DNA of 64,000 bases. It comes from Sphagnum compactum. Its lineage: Eukaryota. Where the stretch lies: assembly GCA_965153455.1 (NCBI GenBank), contig OZ234493.1:32354213-32418212 (forward strand). The letters are read 5' to 3'. The position numbers and the translations under genes are program-made. The notes below the pieces were generated by a model. It ran no database searches and was not told the origin of the DNA. It saw only the letters and a program-made list of their open reading frames with translations. Positions 24,887 to 58,573 of the stretch are shown here, piece after piece; position 1 is the first letter of the stretch, and every line of letters begins with the position of its first letter.

Positions 24887-26388
24887 GCTGAATTCTCCCC
24901 CTCTTCTGATGAAAGAATTCCCTCCGGTCGTTGCGGACTACAAAATCCAAAAAGACTCCTTTGTTTTGTCTCTTGTGTTTTTTCTCTCGTATTTTGAGCA
25001 CAAATTATGAGAGTTTCTTGAATAGGATTCTTCATCTTCGTTTGTTTGTCGCTAAGATTTGGATGCACCTAGCTAGCTAGCTAGCTCATGTAGGAAATTG
25101 TGCAAAGAGTCTTGAGAGCGTTGTGAATGGTTGCGTGTCTGCGTTCTTTGGAGGTATGTTTTGATTACAGGAATCAATCAATCAGTGAGCGAGCGGAGCT
25201 TGCTTTTACCAGGATTGCGTATGAGCGACGGCTTTGCAACTGTACTCGCCTGGCCGGAAATCCGCGGTGTGTAATTCCTGCGGCTTCTTCTTGCGCTTGT
25301 CGTCTTTGCAGCAACTGTGATTTGATCACTTCTACGATTAGGGTTTGTGGGTTTGAAAGTTAATCCGTGATCACTGAGGAGGAGGATCTTCTTGGAGAAG
25401 GTTCCCTCTTGCCATGCGTATGGCACATACATGCGATTTGATTACGAGTTCTAGATGCGATATGTCGCAGAGTGACATAGTTTTTGGGCTTACGAGTTAG
25501 GGTTTCAGTTGCAGGAGGAAAGTTTTAGGGTTAGACATTCTTTGTTGTTTCCTTGGCGAGTCGTAAGAAAAAGACAGGAATATCAGGAAGAAGAAGAAGC
25601 TAGAAGCGTTGGAGGGACGGAAGGAAGGACTGCTGCTGCTGCAAATCCCTGGGGAATTGGACTAGTTCAACTTTTTGTTGAGGAACAGGAATCACTGTGC
25701 TGCACTTTCTTGCACACAGGAATTGAGGGTTAGGTTAGACATCGTCATTGATTGAGGAGTTCAGCAATTTCTTTCAGCCATGTGGCGTGAATCTGGTGCA
25801 GAAGGCACTTCGGTTTGACAAGGTTTCCACCAAGGTAATATTCACTTTCTCATCAACTTTCAACACACACTTAAGTACAATCAAATGGTTTTGAGAGGGG
25901 CAGTCAAGTTCAAGATATGTGGAAACTGTAGTTCCAATTTGCACCAAATGTCCGATATACTTGGAAACTGTGCATCTGATTTCATGAACAACCTTTGCAA
26001 ACATCTCAGAGAGAATTTAGGTGAAGTGAAGTGACTCTTTTGCCGGTCTAAGATTGTGACAATTGGTGAAACATTTGAAGTGAAAATGTGAGCGGTGTGC
26101 ATTTTTCCTCTCATGCACTGGTTTTTTTCAGATGGTATCTGTGGTGTAGTTTAGAAAGAGTGTTATGCTGTGACTACTGAGTATCTCATATCACCCCCTC
26201 AAGATGAGAGTAATGAGAAATCGTTTGTTTGGCAAGTTATATAAGTCAGGTTTTATGAAATGTTTATTTCTTGATTGGGTAGCACTTGTTCCCCTGAGGG
26301 TAGTGTAAATTTTGCCACTTATAATTGATTGCTGCAGGAGAAAGCGTGGTGTAAATTTTTCCTCTTATGATTGATTGCTGCAGGAGAA

Positions 26389-28176
26389 ATGGCCCATGGG
26401 GATGGCTACCTGGCAACACTTTTGATTGAGGAAGTTTCACCAGAGGACTCAGATGAAGGGAATGAAGATTCAGAAAGTGATAAATTGGTTCTGATTCCAG
26501 GCTTGCCAAATGACTTGGCATTGCAATGCCTGGCACGTGTACCTCGTCGCCACCATCTTAATTTACGCTGTGTGTGCACCAAGTGGAGAGATATGGTGGC
26601 TAGTGAGTCTTACTACTTTCTTCGGAAATGCTTAGGCCTAAGTGAGGGTTGGATTTATGCCTTCAGCCGTGACTATTCTGAGTGCTTGCACTGGCACATT
26701 CTTGACCCTGTTGCTCGCACTTGGAAGGAGCTGCCAGGGATGCCTGGTGATTGTTTGCGGAGGTACAATGTTCCACAAACCTTCTAATCTATGCATATCC
26801 TAGGTCTTACAACCATATAGAGCTTAGGACTTGATCCAAATGGGACTCAAAAAGTGGCTCTCTACTTATTTTCAACATCGATTTGTGTTTGGAGTTTGAC
26901 TTGACTTGAATTTTTGTCATTCTACACATGGTCCTAATGATTTTGGGGAATTCCTCTGCCCACTTTCATATTTCCTGAGTTCCCATCAGGCAGGAACATG
27001 TACAGCCTAAGCTCTGAGCTCACAATTGTCTGTTTTTCTCCACTTTTTGGTCCTAATCAGATACCGATTCTGTTTGGGTTATAGGTACGGAGTGACATGC
27101 TCAGTTGTGGAAAGGGAGCTATATGTGATGGGTGGGGGTGCACAATTTCGCAACCCAACCTCAGAAGTCTACAAATTTGACCCGATCAAGAATGAGTGGA
27201 GTGAAGCTGCCCCAATGGAAATGGCCCGTTGCCATTTTGTTAGCAGTGCCCTTAGTGGCCGTTTGTATGCAGTTGGTGGAATGGGTGCATCCTCTGGCCC
27301 CCTAACTTCATGGGAGGTTTTCAACCCAGAGACAAATCAATGGTTTGTGCGTGAGGATCCAAATGTTGTGCCAGATTTAGGGGAGTCACTAGTAACTGAT
27401 GGAAAAATATATGTCCGGCATGTAACTCCTGGATACATGGGCTCATATGCAGCTGTATTTGACCCTGTTGAGAGTGCATGGGCTTCTGTTGATAATGAAT
27501 TGATGAAGACATGGTGTGGACCAACTGCTGTTACAGAAAGTGATGTTTATATGCTTGACCAAACTTTTGGCATCAAGCTTATGGTACTAGATAAGGAATC
27601 AGGCCAGTGGAGCCGAGTGGGTCGCTTCTCTCCTCAGTCCATTCGCCTGCCTTGTCGGTATGACTCTTATACTCAATCTGCCTCATTCAACCGAAAATTG
27701 AGCAAATTGTTGGGGATGTGCATTCAAGTGTTGAATTTGAGTTGATCACATTAAAGTCTTAGATAATGTTTGGGTCCTACTGCATTCATAATTTGTGAAT
27801 TTGCAGCTACTGGTAAGGAAGGAGAGCATAATGAGCAAGCAAATTAGAGACACCTCCCCAGTGTCAAGAACAATAATCCAAAGTAAACTACTTCAAGTTT
27901 TCCTGAGGAGCGGTGAAAACAAAATTTGATAAATTAAATGTGTTCCACTCTTTCTAGGAGTTTTGGCTCCAAAGGGATGTTAACTTTAAGCCTATTGGGT
28001 GCAGGCTGGCAGCAATTGGGAAACACTTGTATGTGGTTGGCAGGGGCCTCAAGACTCTCGTTTTAAACACAGAGAAAGCTTGGAGTGGAAGTGAGGGCTT
28101 GCTTGTGACCTCGTCAATCAATGGACTGCCAGAATGTGAGGATGTTGTATTAAGCTGCCATGTCATTGAACTCTAG
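26389..28176 (+). CDS. F-box/kelch-repeat protein (SKIP4-like), 3 coding exons
   Basis: Exons 26389-26762, 27085-27657 and 28005-28176 are in frame. F-box motif LIPGLPNDLALQCLARVP; kelch repeats LYVMGG..YKFDPIKNEWSEAAPM, LYAVGG..WEVFNPETNQW and LYVVG. Confidence 0.92.
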
Positions 28177-32308: not shown

Positions 32309-33202
32309 CTAGAAGATGTCAGGGTGGAATCGGCCAGGCATGGAACTTCCTTCCTGAGCTTTTTGGAGATGCAGACTTAAAGAATAATTAGTCAATTCGA
32401 GTGTCCGGACTTGCTCCTGATACTGAGACAAAAGTTTTTTCACTTGTTGAAGCTCTCGTGTTCGCCCCTCATGCTCCATTTGCCTCTCATGCTGTATTGC
32501 AACAGCTCTTTTCAAAATGTAGTTGTCACGGACAAATCCCTGAAGCTGCTCTTTCAATGCATTGTTTTCCTTCTGCTGCACTTTGACAATGGCTGCAGAC
32601 TGGGATGCTACTGTCTTCTCAAAAGCTTTAAGGGTGTGGGTTGCCCTGGATCTGGCATCATTCAAATCTGCAGCGTTCATCATCTCTCTCACCAGAAGTT
32701 CCACCCATTCCTCACCCTCCAATTGTTGCAGCGATGCAGCTGCTGCATCCACTTCCTCCCCATGAGAACTAGTCGAGGGGGATGGAGACTCCATACCTCC
32801 AAGACTGGAACAATGGGCAACAGCACCAGAAACAACATCCTGGCTAGAAGAACCAGCTAGTCCTGAAGAAGACAATCGCAGACTAGTTAAGCTCTTGATT
32901 GCATGATCCAGGTTGTTACTGCAAGACTCCAGCACTTTCTCTATAAGCTTTTCTTCCATCTCAGGGAAGAGGGCATAGAGCTGCAGCAGAACCGAGCCCT
33001 CCGTGTGATGCCTGGAGGACCCGGCCTCCAGGCAGGCTTCAAAAGGAGTGCCACTTATGGTGCTAGGCAGGGGGGAAGCTGCTGCACTGGGAAAACGGAT
33101 GGCAGAATTGGTGGCCTGAGCAAAGCGCAGCCGCTTGGCTACAGGCGGGGAACTGTGCAAATCCTCAAACACAGACCGCTTCCCACAAACTGCAGCAGAC
33201 AT
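32309..33202 (-). CDS. CUE-domain (ubiquitin-binding) protein with C-terminal coiled coil; plant 'MSAAVCGKRS...FHPDIF' family
   Basis: Uninterrupted ORF (301 aa from 33214; family-typical start MSAAVCGKRS at 33202). CUE motif LYALFPEMEEKLIEKVLESCSNNLDHAIKSL; EWVELLVREM; ILKRAVAIQHERQ; C-terminus NYSLSLHL..PGRFHPDIF. Probable 5'UTR intron 33285-33710. Confidence 0.9.
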   Translation of the reverse strand: MSAAVCGKRSVFEDLHSSPPVAKRLRFAQATNSAIRFPSAAASPLPSTISGTPFEACLEAGSSRHHTEGSVLLQLYALFPEMEEKLIEKVLESCSNNLDHAIKSLTSLRLSSSGLAGSSSQDVVSGAVAHCSSLGGMESPSPSTSSHGEEVDAAAASLQQLEGEEWVELLVREMMNAADLNDARSRATHTLKAFEKTVASQSAAIVKVQQKENNALKEQLQGFVRDNYILKRAVAIQHERQMEHEGRTRELQQVKKLLSQYQEQVRTLELTNYSLSLHLQKAQEGSSMPGRFHPDIF

Positions 33203-33318
33203 TGCATCCAGCAATTCCCTGTTCTCTCTCCCTTTGTCTATCTGTGAACCCTTGCCCTCTCCCTCTTCTCTTCCTTCTCCTCACCTGAAACCCTTCCAAG
33301 AGCTAAGCTCCTCCTCCG

Positions 33319-43246: not shown

Positions 43247-45469
43247 TATTATCTATCATAAGTGCATATCATATATTATATTGTGCAGCTTAACCTAGGT
43301 AATAGATAGGTAGGAATAGACTTCCTACCTAGCTTATATAATAACTAGGTAGGTAAGTAGGTAAACTTAGGTTACTTATTTAACCTATGTAATAGCTAGG
43401 TAGGTAGATAGGCCTTGGCTACTTATTTATTTAGGTCTACCTACCTAGCATAAATAGTAGGCAAGTAGGTAGGTAGGCCTATCTATATAAATAGGTAGGT
43501 AAATTTAAATTATCTACCTAGCCTAGATAATAATTAGTTAGCTTGGTTTATCAATTAACATAGAATGTTCAATTTGACTTTAAAATCATTCATCATTTTG
43601 ACCAAGCATATCATTTTACTTTGTCCAACTTGACTAAATGTCCATTTTCATTTACAACTTTCTTTCCACATTGTTTGTTTTTCATAATTCAAATTTGATA
43701 AAACAAGAACTATATCCCGTGACACTTCCTTGGTGTCTTAATCATAAGCAACGCTAACGAGAAAGTCAATACCCTTGGACCTTCGTTTCACGAGTCACCC
43801 ACTACTAGTTCACACAAGGTACCAACATTGGTTCTCACCGGCCCAATGAACCCATAACCTTTCTCTTCTTCTTGGATGAAAATGAATGTCATAGTCACTC
43901 TCTTTGTGGATGAAATGAAGGAATCTTGCTTGAATTTTCATTATGGTTTAGTATGCTTGGGTAATTTGGCTTGAAGCCCACAATTACGAGAAATAGCCTG
44001 CCATGTCTTGACTTTAAGTATTTCCAACAATTGGGCCATTGTGTAATTTTCTTGATCACATTAGATGACATAATCTTTTGATGTTGATCATACATTTGTA
44101 ATATTGACCATGTAAATTTGTTTGTTAAATATAATTTTTTTTTCGAAATGGTTGAATCTGCCATCACAAACCTTAAATGTCATGGAATGGCCTCACCATG
44201 GAAGTGCTTGTTATGATGGGTGCGTTGCTTAGGTTGCTGGCGAATGGGGTTCTTGACACCTTACCCAATATAGTATAGGAGAAGGGCCTGTACTCAGGTC
44301 CTTTTCTTATGTAAAGCAGAGCTGGGATTTTTTCACTTTTTAACTTTTAATCACATTACAACAACTCAAAGTCAAAATGGCAAAACTCACCCAAACTAGA
44401 CCTAACCCATTTGGGCATGGGGTACTTGAATACTCTTGGTGGTATTGGTTTACGCATAAACATCTAGAATTTTCAATCAAGCTTACATAGGAGTAAAGGT
44501 CTACAAAACACTTTTAAAACACAAGGTCTAACTAACAATGCATGCAACTCATTCTACCAAAACCTTGCAACATTGTACACGCAACATAAGTATACATCAA
44601 ATTACATATAGAAATATGATGAAACAAGAATTCAAATAGGGCGACAATAGGGACAAGAGTTTTAGGGAAAAACAATTCACAAAAAATGTATAACAAATAG
44701 CGACAAGCTGGCTGGTGGTACCTTCAGCTGGTCAGAAGACCCCAGTACAGCCTGGCTGGTACATGAAAATAGGTTTCTTCAGGCAGCTAATGGAGGTCTT
44801 GACAATTCTGTAGTACATAATAATGACCTTGCTAGGATTTTGCAGTGTAATAGGAGGGTGCCCTAAATCCATAAAGCACTGTTCCAAATTTTGCAGTGTA
44901 TTTGGAGAGTACATTATAAAATGTAATAACAGGGTGAACATTTTGGTAAAATGGAATGTTTGTCACTCACCCTCGTTTAAAAAAAATTAAAAATTAAAAT
45001 AAAAATTGGTTGTGCTTTACATTGGGCAGCGCCCACAGAGCGAGGGCACTACTGAAATAAGAACCCCCTTGGCTCCGCCTTGAGAGGGTCCTTATTTCAG
45101 TAATGCCCAGCTCATGGGGCGTTACCCTACACATAATCCTCAGGTTACTACTAATGACCACCCCTTGGCCAATGCATGTTTGTACCAAAAGGAGGCCCTT
45201 GTGGGGGGGCTCCACTGATACGCAAAGTACTTGCTGCAAGGCCCTTCCCACTGCCCAGTAGGATTAGGGACACGACTGCATCGAGCTTCACGCCCGGTAA
45301 ATGGCTCTTCCGTACCGGGATGCCTCGTGATTTACGCCAGATAAGGGCCTACTGTCAGGGCCTTACTATAATACGTATTGCTCTCTATTCTGTTGCTGCT
45401 GCTGCTGCCAACAACAACAACAGCGTTCAAAACAACTCTGCACTTTGCACCTCTTCTTCAGGAGTCGTC

Positions 45470-48112
45470 ATGCGTGCAGCTGCTGCTTGTGACGGGCTCT
45501 CGATCCCGCGTCTGCTTCTTCCCGCATCTCGCGGGTCGGTGTCTGGAAACCATGTAGCCGCCTGCTGCTGCTGCCCGTCGTCGCCGTCGTCGTCGTCGTC
45601 ATCCTCATCCTCCTCCTTATGGCTGTCAGCTCATTCGAGACGTAGGGTTGATGCAGTAGTGGTTGGAGGGAGAAATGGTGGGGGAGTTGCAAAGGGGAGG
45701 CAGTTTCTGAGCAGCGGCTCAAGTTCGGCAGGCGACAGACGGAAGTGCTGCTCCAGGACGAATTTATGGAGTAAGCCTGGAGAAGGGATTCCTGTCGGGG
45801 AGTTTGGACAGAGAATAGTGGTGCCGGAGTATGATGAGGATGAAGATGTTGATGGAGAGGGGGAAATCAAGCTGGAGTGCGACGAGAGTGGCTGCGTCAT
45901 TGTCATGGAGAAGTTCAAAACGCTCGCGGAGGAAGCCGGGGGAGACGGGTACTTGCGCTGCGACCTCACTGGTTAGTGACTGAGAAGACAGAGACGGAGA
46001 CGGAGAGTTATAGAGTGTGTGTTTGTAATGCGTGCCTCATGGATTCCTCAGTTATAGCATTTGTCACATAGCCAGAGAGAGTGCAACCACATCTCCATGG
46101 GTTTCGGATTTTAGGGTTTAGGGTTTAGGGTATGCAGAGCATCATCAAGCTGATGGCTTGTTGGATTGGCTTCTGGTGACATTGCAAGTAGTTGCAATTG
46201 TCACATTGCAATGCTGACATGCAATGGTGGTGATATTGTGAGGTACACTGTCACATATTTGGTGCAGAGTCAGGCAATGGAAATGAAATGCTGCTGAACA
46301 TAAGTAGCTGGTTTTTGGGTAGGTTGCTACTTTGCGGACGAGCCGGCCCCTGTCAAAAGCTTTGAAGTGATTGAGGGCGAGGGGTGGCGATTAGGCTATG
46401 AAACAGCTCCAGAATCAGAAGAAAGTTTTTGTGCAATTGTGAGGATAAACCCTTCCTTCTTCCCCCTGGTCCCTGCTGCTCATTTCCCAATGGCAATGCA
46501 TCTTGTTGCAAGATTACTTCTACCTTAGATGAAGGCTGTTTGTGGTTTTTCCAAAGATCACCTCAGCACTTTGTTTCCCTGTTGCTGCCAGTCAAGTTTT
46601 CATTGCATGAGGTTCTGAGGGGTGACCTCCATGTGTATGTCAGTTGATCATTGTACATTTTTACATTATAGAGTAGAGGATGAGACCACATGATGTTTTA
46701 CAGCTTAAATGCTTGTCACTGGTGCCTGGGCTGGATTAGATTGGAGCAGGTGGATGGAGTGTTGCCTTGACAGCTTCAGAGTTCAATGACTTCTGTAATC
46801 TTATACAGGTGTGACATTGTGCATGGCAAGCATATGATTACAATTTGTGTTGTTGGAAATTGAAAATTGTTGTCAAAATTTATCACACTGTATACACCTA
46901 ATATGAGTAATTTTCACAAGATCCAGTGAGTTTTTCTGTCCTGATATGAAAATGTTATTGAAGCTTGTTAACCTTCTGCAACTTTATGTTCTTCTATTGT
47001 TGCAACATGACCATGCATTTGACAAATGATTGCCAAATTGTTACAGACATTAAGAAAGGCCATCTCAACAATGGATGAAGATGGGGTCATTGGCAAGGAT
47101 GAAGTGGTGATGCAGGTGTGTATGGACTGCCATCTTTTCAATTTGCTACTTCCTGCTACACTGTTAAGTTTTTTGAGAACTTGTTATTTCTTGGGCATGT
47201 ACATCAAAGCCATAGCTGATTTGAAAGGCTGGTGCCCTTCCTCTCAGGTCCTTGAGAGGAGAGGGCTGTAATCTTCAATTCAGGAAGGTGTTTCTCGTTT
47301 CAGACAACTCAAGGCTTTGTTTGTGGGGTGTTTCTAGGTAGAAAGAGGAAGTGTATGGATGGAGTGCAGTATTCCCAAGAAACAAGTGGCTATTTTCCAG
47401 AATCTTTGGAAGGTTTGTAGACATTTATTTGAATTTTCTCAGATCCTACTTTGCTCAAGTTATTCTAGACAAATGATAAGGCATAAACGCTTGATGCATT
47501 CATGGGAAGTGGAGTAAGATATAGATGTTGCTTGTTTTGTTTCTGTATGGTAACTTTCTTGTATTTTGGCAGCGTGGTAGCAGAGCACTCATTGACAGCC
47601 AGCAGAAAACTGCATTTGAGCTTCGATTCATCTTGTCTGGTGCTTCAGGCAGGCGGCAGGTATGTTTTTGAGCTTACATCTGGGCATTCATTTATACTGT
47701 TTTACCCCCAGTTGAGGTCTAGTCCCTTATGGTGCAGTAAACAATCAAGTGCCAGAAAGCCATCCCAAGTTTTTCATGCAAAGCATTACCCTTGCCCTAG
47801 TAGTTCAGAGACATGACCAGGGCCAGAGAAAGTTGGCCATGTCCATGAAATTGATCACACCATTGTGTAAGGTAGCTGTTAATTTGTACATAGAGTTTGT
47901 ATTGGCTAATGCAGAAAAGGGTGGCCAAAGATTTTACTTGTATAGTTTTAATATCTGAAATCTTGCCATGAATATGGTCTGATTTTCTGCTGGTTGTTCA
48001 GGCTGAAGGCTTCTGGCCTCCTGAGGCAGTCATGGATATGCTGAAGAAGGTGGATGCTGCAACATTGGAATTGCAGTATAAGGCTCAGAAAGCTGCAGCA
48101 GCAAGTGCATGA
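45470..48112 (+). CDS. Probable plastid-targeted DUF1818-like protein (~342 aa, 7 exons)
   Basis: Exons 45470-45971, 46323-46438, 46740-46808, 47047-47115, 47338-47412, 47573-47659 and 48002-48112 all join in frame with GT-AG (1029 nt). The Ser/Arg/Ala-rich N-terminus resembles a transit peptide. The C-terminal part EGEGWRLGY..CAIIGAGGWSVALTASEFNDFCNLIQTL..VWME..FELRFIL..GRRQAEGFWPPEAV matches my recollection of cyanobacterial DUF1818 motifs. Confidence 0.8.
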
Positions 48113-48859
48113 TAACTGTTTGCTCCTGTGATGATGTGCACATAGATTGCAACTCTAATTTGCTCTATCATCTTGTTGCATTATTTTGCTTATGGAATGT
48201 GCCAAGCTTCAATGATCTACGCCCATCCTCCTGCTGTCCACCAGTGTGCAAAGCTGTCATTCATCTTGAGGAAATTGTCCATTGTGGCAGAAACCTGGGA
48301 CCCCTTTGTTTGCTCAAACTTGTGACTTGTAGAAAGGTGCAGATCTTGAGTACTTGAATTTCACAAACCAGTCAGACAATCCACTTGGCACTATTCCCTT
48401 CACTGTGGATGCTAGAGCCATCTGCCAAATTTATGTCATGGATCAACAGCACTGTCATGCTGCTACTTGCTCTGTCTGATCTTTGAGAAAACAGAGAATG
48501 AAATTGTGTAGAATTGTCAGTTTGAGCCATCATGTGCACAAGTAAGGGGCATTGGAATGATGTTTCTCCAACTTTCAGACTCAATTCAACTCATCTCCTC
48601 TCCTTTCCTCTCCCTTCTCACCTTCTACACCCTAGCCTTAAAACATGGAACAAAGAAGACAATAAAGTCTTATGGCCTTTGTCTTTTTCATGGCCATCAA
48701 ACACGCAAAGAACAAGCATTTTGGCATTGAAGCAACATGTCATATGAGTGATGTGTTACATTAATGCTGATGGTTTTATTCATGATGGAAAGAGGAATCC
48801 AAAAAGATGAAATAGTGTCAAGCTATGAGAGACCTCGGGGACTAAGCAGTGATCTTTTG

Positions 48860-54570: not shown

Positions 54571-57067
54571 TCCCCTATCACCTAAGAAACTGAGAACCTT
54601 TTGGGTAGTTTGTGGAAATAGATCACGATACTACGTGGCATGGAATAAATAATTACATTATCTGTTATGTGGGTGGTGGGAACTATCAAATCTTGTACGA
54701 GGGAGATTTGGTTGGAGCTCCCTTTCCCTCAATTCACTAGACCAAATTGAATTTTTCTTTAGTTTTTGGTGCACAGAACTTGATTGACCCCTGAATGAAA
54801 TGATTGATTGCATAGCAAGTCTGGAGGTCTTTGCAACTCTCTCTTTCAATTGGGGGTGAGAGAGTAGGTGCATGAGTACATTGTGACAAAGATCATAATG
54901 TGGGTTGTTGGACAAGGCTCTCTACCATACATACAACTAGAAAGGGAACTTCCCAAGGTTTATTAGAACATGACCCTAGCCACCCTATCCGACACACAAA
55001 GAGCACGGGGGGGGGGGGGGGGTATGGATGAAAATTTCACATACTCATTATGCGGTTGTTACAGTAGAAGTTTGCATGATGATATGGGTGGTTTTCCGTA
55101 CTATGGAATGGACTCGGTAGGGTGAGACGCCATTCCATGAGACACCAGGTTAACTGCTGGTTCTAGTCTGGGTTACCAATTCTCAGATTTCTGAGGAACA
55201 AGGTAACCCAGACTAAACCCTAAACCCTTAAAGAACCACCCCCAAGATTAATTTGGGAAATCAATTTACTTTAGGCACCAGCAGAGCGTGTTGGCCAGCT
55301 GATTTTCACATCCTCAATTTAGGGGAAATATTTTTAGTACATATATATGGCCATCAATTCAAGAACCACCCAAGTTTGCTAGGCTTTTCAATTTTACAAT
55401 CATTAATTCAAGGCCAAATTCCAATAATAAGAAAAAGGAAAAGGAAAAAGAGATTAATATTATAATCACAGAATATAATCATATAATAATAATAATAATA
55501 ATAATATCATAATAATAAGTAAGACTCAAGAGTCAAGAGATATAATATAAAATAATGGTAAAATAAATCTAGAATCTATAGAGAGAGAGAAAGGGGGGGG
55601 CGGGGGGGGGGGGAGCTATGTGTGGATATTTTAGACAATGTCGAAAAGTGTGCAATAATTGACAAGCTTCCGGAAATCGGCCTTTCATCCCCCTCCCCCC
55701 CTTCTTCCCCCTCCTCCTAATTAGCCCCTTTTGGGGCACGACCTGCCTAGTTAACGTTACGTAAGACTCCTGCTAATTAGCCACTTTACATAGTTACCTT
55801 GCTAATTAGCCCCTTTCCATAGCAACCCTGCATTCGCGCGAAGAGGACGAGAGCGTTGGCCCAGCTCCTTGAGCGTTGTTTCGCTCGCTCCCGCGCGCGC
55901 GCGCGCGCCCGCGCATGGACGGTGTTGTCGCGCGCTTGTCTCGATTCTTCTTCTTCGATTAACCAGCCAGCGACGATAGATACATGTGGATCAGGCCGTT
56001 CTGCGCTGGTCGCCTCGTTCTTGTGCGCCTGTTGTTGTTGTTGTTTTGCTTTCATTATCCTGAATATGACTTGGTAAAAGAATCCGGTTGTGTCAATTAG
56101 GCAGTCTGGCAGCAAGATCAACATCTACAGCTAATCTTCTACTACAGCTAACTAATAATTTTCTTGTTTTCTGTTTTCTTGTTTGCTCTGCATGATGCTG
56201 CGCGCAGCTTCGTCTCATTTCTTCCAGCCTGTGATCGTCGTCGGCCGTGGCTACTTTTGTTTTCTGGAACTTCTTCTGGTAAATTTCCTGATTCCTCCGC
56301 TGAAATTTTCTTTCTCCAAGGTAGGCGCTAGTTAACATTGTTGTGAAGAACAGTAGAATAATATAGACTCTAGATTCATGATGATGATGATGATGGGATC
56401 ATGATGCGATGATCCATCCGATCATCATGATGTGAAGATATAAACAGCAGGTGGTGCTTGATCATCTTCTACCTGAGGTATTTCGTTTCTTTTGTTACAG
56501 TAGTTTAGTTGACGAGAGCAGATTGCACGATCCGCGAGTGTCTCATTTGCGAGAATTTCACATGTCTGTAGAAATATATCTATAGACTGTACTCCACGGA
56601 CGTGATTCATTCATTTCACGGGTTTTTAATTTGTCCCCGAATTTGGTCATTGCATGATTCTGGACATCATCGGGAATCCACTTCGCTGTAATAATATTCA
56701 ACGAGGGTGCTCAGAGACTGAGAGGTATTCTCGGACTCGGTTGAATATTTTTGAGACCTGTGTTTGTAGAATTGAGTGCATAGCTGGTCTGCACTTTGAA
56801 GAGGTTCAAGCCGTTGCTACTAGTTTTTTTTTTCCCGTTATAAGGTAGCTGACGATCAAAGTATGTGCCGCTGCCTTTGGCGGTGATCATGTTCCTTAGA
56901 GGAGGGACGGATCAGAATTCAAGGGATAGTAGTACTGGAGAAGCACTAGTTTAGAGATCTGCTGCGGTGATCAGGATTGGGGTCCTGCAGGAGGCTGGAG
57001 TTTTCGCAGCGGTCTTTGAAAGGTGCTGCTAGTACACGTACTTGTTGTCCGCGGAAAGTTTTCTATC

Positions 57068-58573
57068 ATGCAGATGCTGCAACAACTCCTGTCGTCGCCG
57101 CAAGGGCGGCGCATACAAAGAGCACTTAATAACATGAAGATCACCGTAATGTGCGGCCTGATGACGATTCTAGTATTGCGGGGAACAATCGGGGCTGGCT
57201 ATTTTGGAACCCCGGTGCAGGATTACGAGGAAATCCGGGCGCATCTGCAGTCGTCCACCAGAGGAGCTGCGCACGCGAAACGAGCTCTAGCTGAAGTCGA
57301 AGAGAAATCAGGTTTCAAGAGCAGCAGCGGTCGAACGATGCCTGTAGCAGAAATCCAGCAAGAAGAAGTCTACAACGTGACGAAGAACAACGTTTGGAAC
57401 GCTGGGCTCCAGGGCTTCTCAGCAGCAGCAGTCACAGAAGACTGGGATGCGCAACGCAGTCAGTGGAAGCTCCAGAATGATCCTAATGTCAGCACGAGTA
57501 CGGTTGTCCCGCGATCAGGGTTGCAGCTGCAGCCTCGCATGCTCCTGGTCACAGGATCGCAGCCACAACACTGCGAGAATCCCGTGGGCGATCACTATCT
57601 GTTGAAATCGTTCAAGAACAAACTAGATTACTGCCGCTTGCATAGTATGGAAATGTTCTACAACACGGCAGATCTGGATCATCTCATGACAGGGTTTTGG
57701 ACCAAGCTCCCGTTGCTGCGCAACTTGATGCTGGGCCACCCGGAGGTGGAGTGGCTATGGTGGATGGACAGCGATGCCATGTTCACCGACATGTCGTTCC
57801 AGGTTCCATTGGAGAAGTACCAGAGCTACAACCTGGTCTTGCATGGCTTCAACGATTCTGTCTACAAGAACAAAAGCTGGACAGGTCTCAACACGGGAAG
57901 CTTCCTCATCCGCAACTGTCAGTGGTCCCTGGATCTGCTCGACGCCTGGTCACCCATGGGACCTAAAGGCAGCATTCGAGACAAAGCGGGTACGTCGTGT
58001 CGTCTGTCACGATTCCCTAGCTCTCTTAAGATGTTCCCTAGAACTCGGGTTGTTTCTTTTTCTGGAGACTGCGGATCACTGAATTAGGGATGATGATGCG
58101 TGATCATGACTCATCTTGTTGGCCGGCTGCCTGCAGGTGAGTTGTTGTCACAGAGTCTGGTAGGAAGGCCCAGTTTTGAAGCTGACGATCAGTCCGCGCT
58201 CGTGTACTTGTTGATCACACAAACGGCCAAGTGGGCCAACAAAGTTTTTCTGGAAAGTACGTACTTCTTGCACGGATACTGGGTAGAATTGGTAGAGAAA
58301 TACGAAGCGATGATGGAGAAGTACCATCCGGGTTTGGGAGATGAGCGGTGGCCCTTGGTGACACACTTTGTGGGCTGCAAGCCCTGCAGTCAAAACTCGG
58401 GCGATTACCCTATGGAAAAATGCGTGAAGCAAATGGAGAGGGCTTTCAATTTTGGTGATAACCAAATCCTTGACATCTATGGCTACCAGCACAAATCTCT
58501 TGAACAACCGGACGTCAAGCGCATCTTGAGAAGTACCGACACATCTGATTCAGACCCTTTGAAGCTCTCGTAG
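57068..58573 (+). CDS. Glycosyltransferase family 34 (xyloglucan 6-xylosyltransferase / galactomannan galactosyltransferase-like), type II Golgi membrane protein, 2 exons
   Basis: Exons 57068-57989 and 58137-58573 (~452 aa). TM segment KITVMCGLMTILVLRGTIG; motifs LLVTGSQP, GDHYLLKSFKNKLDYCRLH, EWLWWMDSDAMFTD (DxD), GLNTGSFLIRNCQWSLDLLDAW, FEADDQSAL, RWPLVTHFVGCKPC. Probable 5'UTR intron ~56321-56990. Confidence 0.95.

Follow-up and report, generated by a model that had tools for sequence, protein, structure and literature searches.

The DNA studied here contains an expressed nuclear moss gene with seven exons that encodes a 342-amino-acid protein of the DUF1818 family (Pfam PF08848). This family is small, ancient and single-copy, and it is known but uncharacterised. 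The new feature is the set of cysteine hairpins carried by its eukaryotic members.

Gene structure and expression

The gene lies on the plus strand of Sphagnum compactum between positions 45470 and 48112 of the window, by which we mean the whole stretch of 64,000 nucleotides that was analysed. Its seven exons join into an open frame of 342 codons (1029 nt including the stop) that contains no internal stops, and GT...AG is found at the ends of all six introns. In the window sequence, no ATG occurs upstream of 45470 from bin 45404-45507 onward. The positions of the individual features are as follows.

45404..45469, plus strand: 5' UTR, start approximate (RNA depth from bin 45404-45507; contigs begin at 45425-45436)
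45470..45971, plus strand: coding part of exon 1, aa 1-167 and base 1 of codon 168 (ATG at 45470, GT donor at 45972; joint 45971/46323 with 14 spliced reads)
45470..45787, plus strand: transit-peptide-like N-terminus, aa 1-106 (composition, variability among homologs, pLDDT <50)
45827..45865, plus strand: acidic linker, aa 120-132 (read from the sequence; homologs acidic at the equivalent position)
45878..45895, plus strand: cysteine motif 1, C-D-E-S-G-C, aa 137-142 (tip of predicted beta-hairpin 1)
45959..45971, plus strand: cysteine motif 2, part 1, C-D-L-T and base 1 of the Gly codon, aa 164-168 (end of exon 1)
46323..46327, plus strand: cysteine motif 2, part 2, remainder of the Gly codon and Cys169 (start of exon 2)
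46323..46438, plus strand: exon 2 (AG acceptor, GT donor; flanking joints with 14 and 11 reads)
46373..48073, plus strand: DUF1818 domain, aa ~185-330, exons 2-7 (Pfam PF08848 on P0001; structural matches)
46740..46808, plus strand: exon 3 (flanking joints with 11 and 15 reads; its own DUF1818 match)
47047..47115, plus strand: exon 4 (flanking joints with 15 and 10 reads)
47338..47412, plus strand: exon 5, most of the helical insertion (flanking joints with 10 and 10 reads)
47573..47659, plus strand: exon 6 (flanking joints with 10 and 6 reads)
48002..48112, plus strand: coding part of exon 7 with the TGA stop (frame and spliced reads)
48113..>48400, plus strand: 3' UTR (RNA depth reaches 48400 in all four runs)

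Raw RNA-seq data (run X24) contained 14, 11, 15, 10, 10 and 6 spliced poly(A) reads across introns 1 to 6, respectively, with a single orientation throughout, and the identical six joints were also present in contigs from three other RNA runs. A database protein (P0001, 279 aa) aligns with residues 64-342 of the gene model as a single block without gaps and with 276 of 279 positions identical, so that all six junctions are crossed. The seven-exon splice product of about 342 aa that the original prediction had assembled is thereby confirmed in frame, intron ends and protein sequence, and RNA-seq backs each of the six introns. That the locus is a pseudogene, or that its frame is open by chance, was ruled out by the intact frame, the match to P0001 and the spliced reads. 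No point in favor of such a reading was found, the exactness of the six GT-AG junctions and the conservation of orthologs from red algae to ferns also speak against it, and we regard its probability as negligible.

DUF1818 membership and predicted fold

The family assignment of the original prediction was upheld by Pfam, where P0001 matched PF08848 with 68.8 bits (E 5.3e-19), the cut-off being 25, and the domain was located to aa ~185-330. The match is split in two, and a helix of the predicted model (residues 203-215) lies in the insertion of the green lineage. Exon 3 alone, which encodes 23 aa, gave both a Pfam DUF1818 match (E 5e-4, 20.5 bits) and a match to chain 2nvn_A in the PDB (E 0.005). 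Searched singly, exons 1, 2, 4, 5, 6 and 7 had no relevant match in Pfam and exon 2 had none in the PDB, while a word search of exon 1 against longer proteins returned no match, the low-complexity leader probably having crowded the search. NCBIfam had no family for the moss-like protein, a cyanobacterial DUF1818 protein or the neighbor X208. When four full-length homologs were scanned against Pfam at E <= 1, DUF1818 was the only family returned, along with one irrelevant weak row, and the PUR and Whirly models gave no match. Over 44 cyanobacterial and eukaryotic rows, the signature residues G123, E157 and R242 were present in 44/44, W149 in 42/44 and W248 in 40/44, and the family signature, which consists of a G-W-R turn, a second Trp, a Glu that opens the helix and R..G.W close to the C-terminus, is complete in the protein of the window.

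The moss protein and the cyanobacterial DUF1818 proteins, two of which have crystal structures (2NVN from Synechococcus PCC 7942 and 2IT9 from Prochlorococcus NATL2A), are homologous over the entire core. A profile search reached 2nvn_A with an E value of 1.9e-15, Foldseek returned the DUF1818 crystal structures at E 1.1e-7 and 5.3e-6, and VIA-align placed the predicted core on 2it9_A and 2nvn_A with a Z of 11.4 over 120 aligned residues and an rmsd of 2.9-3.2 A. Thus 120 of 120-121 residues superpose, with G123, W149, E157, R242 and W248 shared, and the cyanobacterial proteins are acidic too. They differ in having only 120-130 aa and in being without the leader, the cysteine hairpin (0/56) and the helical insertion of ~24 aa found in the green lineage; compared with them, the moss protein has ~185 extra residues ahead of the domain.

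The core is, as modelled, a PUR-alpha-like domain whose two beta-beta-beta-beta-alpha halves lie on a single chain and follow each other in PUR-like order. The top fold outside the family was PUR-alpha/PURA, a binder of ssDNA and RNA, with five entries that stand above the following rows at Z 5.4-6.9, a range that is middling by the scale of the tool, over 113-126 residues and with an rmsd of 4.1-5.3 A; in 3k44_A, 125 of 145 residues were aligned at Z 6.9. PUR-alpha has the same two halves per chain as the moss model, but the sequence identity is 7-11%, there is no Pfam PUR match, both the moss protein and its cyanobacterial counterparts have a strongly acidic character, and we know of no PUR protein with cysteine hairpins. 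The Whirly proteins (WHY1-3, PBF-2/p24), which are ssDNA binders of plastids and mitochondria, share the broad fold class, and plastid localisation is known for some of them. They form tetramers, and they occur in seed plants (Arabidopsis and potato are the sources of the matched entries), where DUF1818 was not seen among the named matches. Whirly entries were matched at Z 2.8-3.5 and Foldseek E 0.01-0.05, with no Pfam Whirly match. Of the PC4/Whirly fold that had been proposed, the broad PUR/Whirly-like class is retained, but PUR-alpha is nearest, Whirly is a weak match and no PC4 entry was listed in the fold searches.

Cysteine hairpins

Both C-x-x-x-G-C motifs form the tips of predicted beta-hairpins, the predicted strands in P0001 being 70-75/78-83 around motif 1 and 98-102/105-109 around motif 2. 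The acidic stretch at aa 120-132 and the motifs CDESGC (aa 137-142) and CDLTG/C (aa 164-169) are all present as first described, and intron 1, which splits the second motif, is read through at its joint in both the spliced reads and P0001. Among 22 aligned homologs, C74/C79 of P0001 (motif 1) are invariant and C101/C106 (motif 2) are found in at least 90%, in keeping with the CDxxGC conservation that had been expected; in motif 1, the Asp and the Gly are invariant as well. Within the turn, Asp was present in 48/49 and Gly in 49/49. The two Cys of a motif are spaced C-x4-C, except in one trebouxiophyte cluster, which has C-x5-C. A single moss transcript cluster, P0006, has lost the leading Cys of motif 1.

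At least one C-x-x-x-G-C motif is carried by 84 of the 94 N-extended members (one motif in 51, two motifs in 33), compared to none of the 56 cyanobacterial-type members. Motif 1 occurs in both the red and the green lineages and motif 2 is confined to the green lineage, where streptophytes retain all four Cys; most non-streptophyte members lack motif 2 and retain motif 1. It is most likely, judging from this distribution, that hairpin 1 is older than the separation of the red and green lineages and that hairpin 2 arose later within the green lineage. The idea of a gained cysteine module therefore holds with respect to the cyanobacterial-type proteins, but the two motifs were not acquired together.

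Since 51 members carry a single motif, against 33 with two, each Cys pair appears to be an independent unit, and a disulfide therefore fits better than a single metal site with four Cys. The alternative is that the hairpins bind metal (Zn, Fe or an Fe-S cluster) instead of forming disulfides, and the site would then consist of four Cys of one chain in streptophytes and of two Cys from each of two chains in the lineages with one hairpin. With four conserved Cys distributed over two hairpin tips that are separated by 23-31 residues, the arrangement resembles that of zinc ribbons and rubredoxin knuckles, and a dimer of one-hairpin members could supply the site, related fold classes often forming oligomers. 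However, the usual metal knuckle is C-x2-C, as opposed to C-x4-C here, where Gly precedes the second Cys, and a zinc ribbon was ranked below a disulfide because motif 1 stands alone in most non-streptophyte members. Nor was there any significant match to a metal-binding family, as a PDB profile search with the cysteine-module region returned only Ikaros-type zinc fingers (E 0.45 and 1.8, not significant) and Pfam had no match there. The ESM Atlas gave no usable match to the module (P0001 residues 64-116), and the prediction of a homodimer with two Zn, which scored 0.47 and thus below an unrelated control (0.65), was counted neither for nor against dimerisation or metal binding. On balance, we find metal binding rather unlikely.

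Cysteine-pair inserts with a redox function are known from plastids, as in the redox loop of the ATP synthase gamma subunit, CP12 and the tail of GAPDH-B. Like the DUF1818 hairpins, these are short cysteine-pair elements on plastid versions of proteins of cyanobacterial origin, and the gamma loop is, like the hairpins, a short turn closed by Cys. They share no sequence homology with the DUF1818 hairpins, which have the C-x4-C spacing. A hairpin found only in eukaryotes is a clear and datable addition after endosymbiosis and could be another instance in which a cyanobacterial protein came under thiol control.

Distribution and descent

The named DUF1818 matches come from cyanobacteria, red and green algae, bryophytes and ferns, and no seed-plant member is found among them, which is in line with the suggestion that the gene was perhaps lost in seed plants. 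At E <= 0.001, the family accounted for 210 representatives out of 1.84 billion. The branching of the tree agrees with that of the species, and SH-aLRT values are 97 for the green clade and 98 for the red clade. Because the family is present in cyanobacteria, both algal lineages, bryophytes and ferns, the gene is most simply read as a vertically inherited endosymbiont gene, and the endosymbiont origin claimed earlier is consistent with the tree in terms of both cyanobacterial descent and vertical inheritance.

One homolog is labelled Polytomella parva, an alga whose plastid is without DNA (PMC7027753 and PMC9598040). This sequence is Pfam-positive (36.7 bits) and sits with the chlorophycean members. 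Contamination was considered and judged unlikely, because the sequence pairs with Chlamydomonas leiostraca (SH-aLRT 84) inside the chlorophycean clade (97) and can be aligned from the extreme N-terminus with another chlorophycean member. A further match is labelled as a predatory amoeba; its sequence resembles Closterium.

N-terminal leader and localisation

Residues 1-100 have a net charge of +10, three acidic residues and a Ser+Thr content of 25%. Ser, Arg and Ala are abundant in the leader as a whole (aa 1-106), which has a run of Ser, is unaligned and variable among homologs, and has a pLDDT of <50 in the predicted model. All 30 full-length eukaryotic members that were checked have basic N-termini with no more than three acidic residues in the first 40 aa. 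The acidic linker lies in a strongly acidic stretch of sequence. From the N-terminal composition and the organisms that carry DUF1818, we infer that the leader directs the protein to the plastid. Plastid and mitochondrial leaders are indistinguishable by composition alone and a homolog is retained in the non-photosynthetic Polytomella, and both observations would be compatible with a protein that is not in the plastid (e.g., mitochondrial, dual-targeted or cytosolic) and that has a role outside plastid redox and gene expression. We nevertheless consider this improbable given that the named matches are confined to cyanobacteria and plastid-bearing eukaryotes and that a plastid is still present in Polytomella (PMC7027753).

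Gene neighborhood in cyanobacteria

The cyanobacterial loci were searched with a five-sequence cyanobacterial alignment, a 12-sequence version being too diverse. In 71 of the 80 loci, many of which derive from related cyanobacteria, the rpoZ gene (confirmed at 133 bits, with 98 as the cut-off) was located upstream of the DUF1818 gene and in the same orientation. The linkage was found in 25 of 30 evenly drawn cyanobacterial genomes and in 8 of the 20 most divergent ones, the other 12 having no rpoZ within 3 kb. For the neighbor X208, the ESM Atlas returned cyanobacterial hypothetical proteins only. The adjacency to rpoZ need not mean interaction, but the linkage is a concrete starting point for studies of function.

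Possible function

Our best guess, which is a tentative one, is that the protein is a plastid thiol-switched adaptor in which an acidic DUF1818 core docks on a conserved partner and the hairpins respond to redox. The leader would mediate import into the plastid, and the acidic core would retain the job that it has in cyanobacteria, where its gene is usually located just downstream of rpoZ, which encodes RNA polymerase omega. This job would most likely be docking on a conserved partner, a protein being likelier than bare nucleic acid. The eukaryote-specific hairpins, acquired in the order proposed above with hairpin 1 before the red/green split and hairpin 2 afterwards in the green lineage, would most likely be thiol switches, as the paired cysteines, predicted to lie opposite each other across the strands, could form a disulfide, and the N-terminal module would shift with the stromal redox state.

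A protein partner is favored over nucleic acid because the moss and cyanobacterial members are acidic and because SsgA/SsgB, found in the same fold class in the fold searches and to our knowledge not nucleic-acid binders, share the fold class. The mature moss protein has a pI of 4.4 and a net charge of -18, and the pI is 4.2-5.1 in cyanobacterial members (n=13) and 4.3-6.1 in the green lineage (n=17), with 16/17 at 5.2 or below. Red-algal members are neutral to basic (pI 5.2-9.5) and have a basic insertion, and the argument from acidity is for this reason not valid for the family as a whole.

The competing possibility is a plastid ssDNA or RNA binder that would act via the beta-sheet face of the PUR/Whirly-like core, with the cysteine module giving redox dependence. 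The nearest folds outside the family do bind nucleic acid (PUR-alpha at Z 6.9, with one entry solved with DNA), and WHY1-3, PBF-2 and MRP1/2 are matched at Z 3.3-3.5, although such Whirly values are common among unrelated folds and the PUR and Whirly models of Pfam gave no match at E <= 1. The linkage to rpoZ in cyanobacteria and the charge and basic insertion of the red-algal members would also agree with binding, as would the conservation of W149, R242 and W248, residues that would suit a nucleotide as well as a nucleic-acid ligand. In contrast, the moss protein, 13/13 cyanobacterial proteins and most green-lineage members are acidic, and the homolog labelled Polytomella parva comes from an alga whose plastid is described as DNA-less (PMC7027753 and PMC9598040). 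These two observations weaken the nucleic-acid-binding role that the original prediction had put forward, and we consider it unlikely.

A bolder idea, and in our view a long shot, is that DUF1818 is an unrecognised accessory factor of cyanobacterial and plastid transcription and that the C-D-x-x-G-C hairpins, the first added by the host as the endosymbiont turned into a plastid and the second later in the green lineage, couple this factor to stromal thiol redox. If true, this would account for the way in which the order rpoZ-(X)-DUF1818 has been conserved and would mean that plastid gene expression in algae, bryophytes and ferns has a light/redox input that was later replaced in seed plants.

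As no seed-plant member was found among the named matches, plastid biology centered on Arabidopsis would have overlooked DUF1818. No functional study of the family was found in the literature searched, although the two crystal structures exist. Tractable hosts for such work are at hand in Synechococcus elongatus, Cyanidioschyzon merolae, mosses and liverworts. The only mention of cyanobacterial DUF1818 that was found is as a stress-induced transcript (PMC12727749).

Gene structure and transcription

The gene proposed at 45470-48112 of the window, with seven exons on the forward strand and a second cysteine motif split by the first intron, was confirmed in every detail. Region 45000-48600 was read, and a scripted splice joined the exons into an uninterrupted frame of 1029 nt (342 codons followed by the TGA stop); all six introns start with GT and end with AG.

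Exons of the DUF1818 gene (window coordinates, strand, feature)
45470-45971, +, exon 1 (coding), GT-AG model
46323-46438, +, exon 2, GT-AG model
46740-46808, +, exon 3, GT-AG model
47047-47115, +, exon 4, GT-AG model
47338-47412, +, exon 5, GT-AG model
47573-47659, +, exon 6, GT-AG model
48002-48112, +, exon 7 (coding, to stop), GT-AG model

The G+C content is 52.7% in the exons, 40.5% in the introns and 37.2% in the entire window. Several RNA runs that contain the transcript are labelled as moss or plant metagenome. Four public RNA runs were mapped over 45300-48400. Reads of the raw poly(A) run X24 spanned introns 1 to 6 in a single orientation (14, 11, 15, 10, 10 and 6 reads), and the same six joints were present in contigs from the three other runs. 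Coverage begins in the bin 45404-45507 and extends beyond the stop to 48400; since the window sequence lacks an ATG from where coverage begins up to 45470, the transcript has no earlier start codon than the proposed one. The database protein P0001 (279 aa) aligns with model residues 64-342 in a single ungapped block with 276/279 identities, the differences being K75N, A234G and S263N (model numbering), and it is this match that, together with the spliced reads and the open frame, confirms the gene.

Some minor features of the locus were also seen. Unspliced contigs of low depth (8-9, versus 43-164 on the exons) covered the intron 2 region 46409-46769 in two metatranscriptome runs, indicating some intron retention or DNA carry-over. 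Intron 1 contains three perfect TTTAGGG heptamers of the plant telomere type (46110-46131), probably an interstitial telomere-like repeat with no known consequence here. A CTG triplet repeat lies at 45390-45408, within or just ahead of the 5' UTR, and in exon 1 the CGT and TCATCC repeats at 45576-45617 code for the serine run of the leader; 45557-45624 was left out of read mapping as a repeat. Antisense to exon 1 is an open frame of 132 aa (45468-45866, - strand). All stranded reads have one orientation, so this frame is most likely a side effect of a coding sequence that is repetitive and rich in G+C.

The surroundings look like ordinary plant nuclear DNA. No tRNA genes were found in the window, and three other open frames gave family matches; they belong to ordinary plant nuclear genes that show no obvious relation to the DUF1818 gene.

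Other family matches in the window (coordinates, strand, feature)
26371-27745, +, open frame, F-box plus Kelch protein match
32312-33280, -, open frame, CUE-domain protein match
57020-58573, +, open frame, GT34 glycosyltransferase match

Family membership and predicted fold

Exon 3 alone (23 aa) matched Pfam DUF1818 (E 5e-4) and PDB chain 2nvn_A (E 0.005), and none of the other six exons, queried singly against Pfam, gave a relevant match. With P0001 scoring 68.8 bits on Pfam DUF1818 (E 5.3e-19, cut-off 25), the predicted membership holds, and three further bryophyte homologs scored 60-65 bits. The bryophyte proteins match the family model in two stretches because green-lineage proteins carry an extra helix of ~24 residues within the second half of the domain.

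AlphaFold2, run on P0001 with a 22-sequence alignment, gave a mean pLDDT of 74 and a pTM of 0.68, with residues 1-66 disordered and the remainder mostly at pLDDT 75-94. The predicted elements are a hairpin (70-75/78-83), a short helix and a second hairpin (98-102/105-109), then four strands and a long helix (118-174), then two strands, helices, two strands and a long C-terminal helix (185-278). The top Foldseek matches of this model were 2nvn (E 1.1e-7) and 2it9 (E 5.3e-6), followed by PUR-alpha and PURA (E 5.5e-3 to 8.4e-3) and by a third tier of WHY1, PBF-2, WHY2 and MRP1/2 (E 0.01-0.07). An independent structure search ranked 2it9_A and 2nvn_A highest (both Z 11.4), then PUR-alpha 3k44_A (Z 6.9), with SsgA (4.0), MRP (3.4), PBF-2 (2.9) and StWhy2 (2.8) lower down, and a second comparison placed five PUR entries at Z 5.4-6.9, with SsgB (3.6) and WHY1-3 (3.4-3.5) below them, the Whirly scores lying in the range that the search tool rates as common. 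Judged from the predicted model, the nearest solved fold outside DUF1818 is the two-repeat PUR domain. The PC4/Whirly class originally assigned to the domain was thus roughly right as to a PUR/Whirly-type class, but the closeness to Whirly is weak and no PC4 entry appeared among the structure matches.

Cysteine motifs

Both motifs, CDESGC (residues 137-142) and CDLTGC (residues 164-169), had been expected to be conserved, and among the 22 aligned homologs motif 1 keeps its C, D, G and C without exception and the two cysteines of motif 2 occur in at least 90% of the rows. A wider census covered 204 proteins, in which the domain was located by a local HMM built from cyanobacterial members; 163 matched, 150 of them with the N-terminal end of the domain included. 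Fifty-six of these 150 are of the cyanobacterial type, their domain beginning no later than residue 40, and none of the 56 has an upstream C-x-x-x-G-C. The other 94, a number that includes near-identical cluster members such as one Cyanidioschyzon protein 15 times over, have a longer N-terminal extension, and 84 of them carry at least one C-x-x-x-G-C (51 one motif, 33 two); three, from one trebouxiophyte cluster, have a C-x5-C version, and seven, mostly fragments, are free of the motif. The three are P0051, P0178 and P0180 of the Stichococcus cluster, with one added residue in motif 1 (C-x5-C versus C-x4-C).

Over 49 distinct sequence contexts the motif 1 consensus is I-(K/R)-L-E-C-D-(E/V)-(S/N)-G-C-V-(I/L)-V, with Asp in 48/49 and Gly in 49/49. 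The red-algal members (Cyanidioschyzon, Chondrus and Hildenbrandia) have motif 1 only, 19-22 residues ahead of the domain. Motif 2 occurs in streptophytes as well as in some sequences of chlorophyte or prasinophyte type, Nephroselmis being one example. This distribution suggests that motif 1 is an old, eukaryote-specific gain and motif 2 a later one in the green lineage. As motif 1 survives alone in many lineages, each cysteine pair can be read as a self-contained unit, which a cross-strand disulfide would suit better than a single four-cysteine metal site. In P0006, a moss transcript cluster of 10 members, Tyr replaces the first Cys of motif 1 and the C-terminus runs into an apparent retained intron; either decay of a gene copy or aberrant transcription may explain this.

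Distribution, descent and targeting

Among 1.84 billion representatives, an exhaustive profile search returned 210 with E <= 0.001, of which 70 reached E <= 1e-10 and 26 reached E <= 1e-30.

Named eukaryotic DUF1818 matches
Mosses and liverworts: Ceratodon, Riccia, Calypogeia
Ferns: Adiantum (two species), Ceratopteris
Streptophyte algae: Mesotaenium, Closterium, Netrium, Coleochaete, Chlorokybus
Chlorophytes: Nephroselmis, Stichococcus, Botryococcus, Coccomyxa, Ostreobium, Chlamydomonas leiostraca, Polytomella parva
Red algae: Hildenbrandia, Cyanidioschyzon, Chondrus

The window protein has its closest named relatives in mosses (Ceratodon, 191/261 aligned residues identical), and this, the tree and the labels of the RNA runs point to a moss as the source. 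A loss in seed plants had been suggested, and no seed-plant name was seen among the 31 matches of one homolog search or the 30 clusters whose names were looked up; Physcomitrium, Marchantia and Selaginella likewise have no row among the named matches, and all of these are absences from the searches and not proof of loss. Of 579 pattern matches in prokaryote genomes, 512 proved to encode a relative, and the 80 best are labelled as cyanobacteria or unnamed bacterial MAGs, with one exception labelled Sericytochromatia. The Pfam model was found in 76 of 201 genomes of unspecified class, sampled evenly across the phylum, nearly always in one copy each.

In a quick maximum-likelihood tree built from 44 sequences of the domain, SH-aLRT supports were 97 for the green clade, 98 for the red clade, 84 for streptophytes, 96 for Coleochaete plus land plants, 96 for ferns and 99 for liverworts, and P0001 groups with Ceratodon, beside the liverworts. 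This pattern is one of vertical descent from the endosymbiont, and the proposed cyanobacterial origin holds, though support for the split between cyanobacteria and eukaryotes is weak (41).

Over its first 100 residues the window protein carries a net charge of +10, with three acidic residues and 25% Ser+Thr, and all 30 full-length eukaryotic members checked have at most three acidic residues in their first 40; the leader sequences fail to align across members. Such a composition fits an organellar targeting peptide and, combined with the restriction of the family to cyanobacteria and plastid-bearing lineages, makes a plastid the most likely predicted location.

Some database entries are unusual. 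P0015, filed under the predatory, alga-eating amoeba Leptophrys vorax, resembles Closterium proteins, which suggests prey RNA within that transcriptome. Closterium itself has a second, divergent paralog (P0033), and its predicted proteins P0046, P0202 and P0203 (648-1269 aa), with the DUF1818 part first and motif 2 only, may be fused gene models.

Possible function

The original prediction mostly stands as regards membership, cysteines, cyanobacterial descent and the lack of a visible seed-plant member. Its weakest part is the idea of a redox-regulated protein that simply binds nucleic acid, against which the acidic charge of the moss, cyanobacterial and green-lineage members counts. The mature moss protein has a pI of 4.4 and a net charge of -18, and the pI is 4.2-5.1 in 13 cyanobacterial and 4.3-6.1 in 17 green-lineage members; red-algal members are neutral to basic (5.2-9.5) owing to a basic insertion. 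A homolog labelled Polytomella parva also argues against such binding, as the plastid of this colourless alga is described as having no DNA (PMC7027753, PMC9598040). This protein, P0113, scores 36.7 bits, above the Pfam cut-off, carries motif 1, lines up with another chlorophycean member starting at the N-terminus (31% identity, E 2e-35) and groups with Chlamydomonas leiostraca in the tree. The chlorophycean clade is divergent, with a long branch and an altered G-W-R turn, and its function may therefore have shifted.

With modest confidence, we instead favor a plastid protein whose acidic PUR-like core would dock onto a conserved partner, with the eukaryote-specific hairpins acting as thiol switches. 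G123, E157 and R242 occur in 44/44 domain rows, W149 in 42/44 and W248 in 40/44 (P0001 numbering; +63 for the window protein), and these residues stand out as candidate ligand-site positions. The literature searched gave no account of what the protein does in either branch, cyanobacterial or eukaryotic; in Synechococcus elongatus, six genes are named as being induced by heavy metals as well as by produced water, and a DUF1818 gene is one of them (PMC12727749). Rather than a new kind of system, this is a previously known, uncharacterized family, and the moss protein is a well-defined unknown that can be approached experimentally.

Gene order in cyanobacteria

In cyanobacteria, rpoZ lies upstream of DUF1818 on the same strand in 71 of 80 loci, a gene that we call X208 lies between the two in 71 of 80, and both are found together in 69. 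The same arrangement, both genes upstream and on the same strand, was present in 25 of 30 genomes drawn evenly from the phylum, and the 20 lowest-scoring, most divergent genomes had rpoZ upstream in eight, directly adjacent in five, and X208 in three; the three locus sets overlap partly (L024 and L088, for instance, are the same place). The rpoZ assignment rests on an NCBIfam score of 133 bits (cut-off 98). X208 encodes a protein of ~200 aa that starts with a membrane or signal segment and has a tail rich in Pro; it belongs to no Pfam or NCBIfam family, and has look-alikes in cyanobacteria only. The rpoZ linkage hints at a connection of DUF1818 with transcription, but such an arrangement of genes offers a lead and does not show binding. 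The conserved order rpoZ, X208, DUF1818 on one strand is exemplified by L008:2939-4360 among loci L001-L130, and in small-genome cyanobacteria DUF1818 directly adjoins rpoZ.
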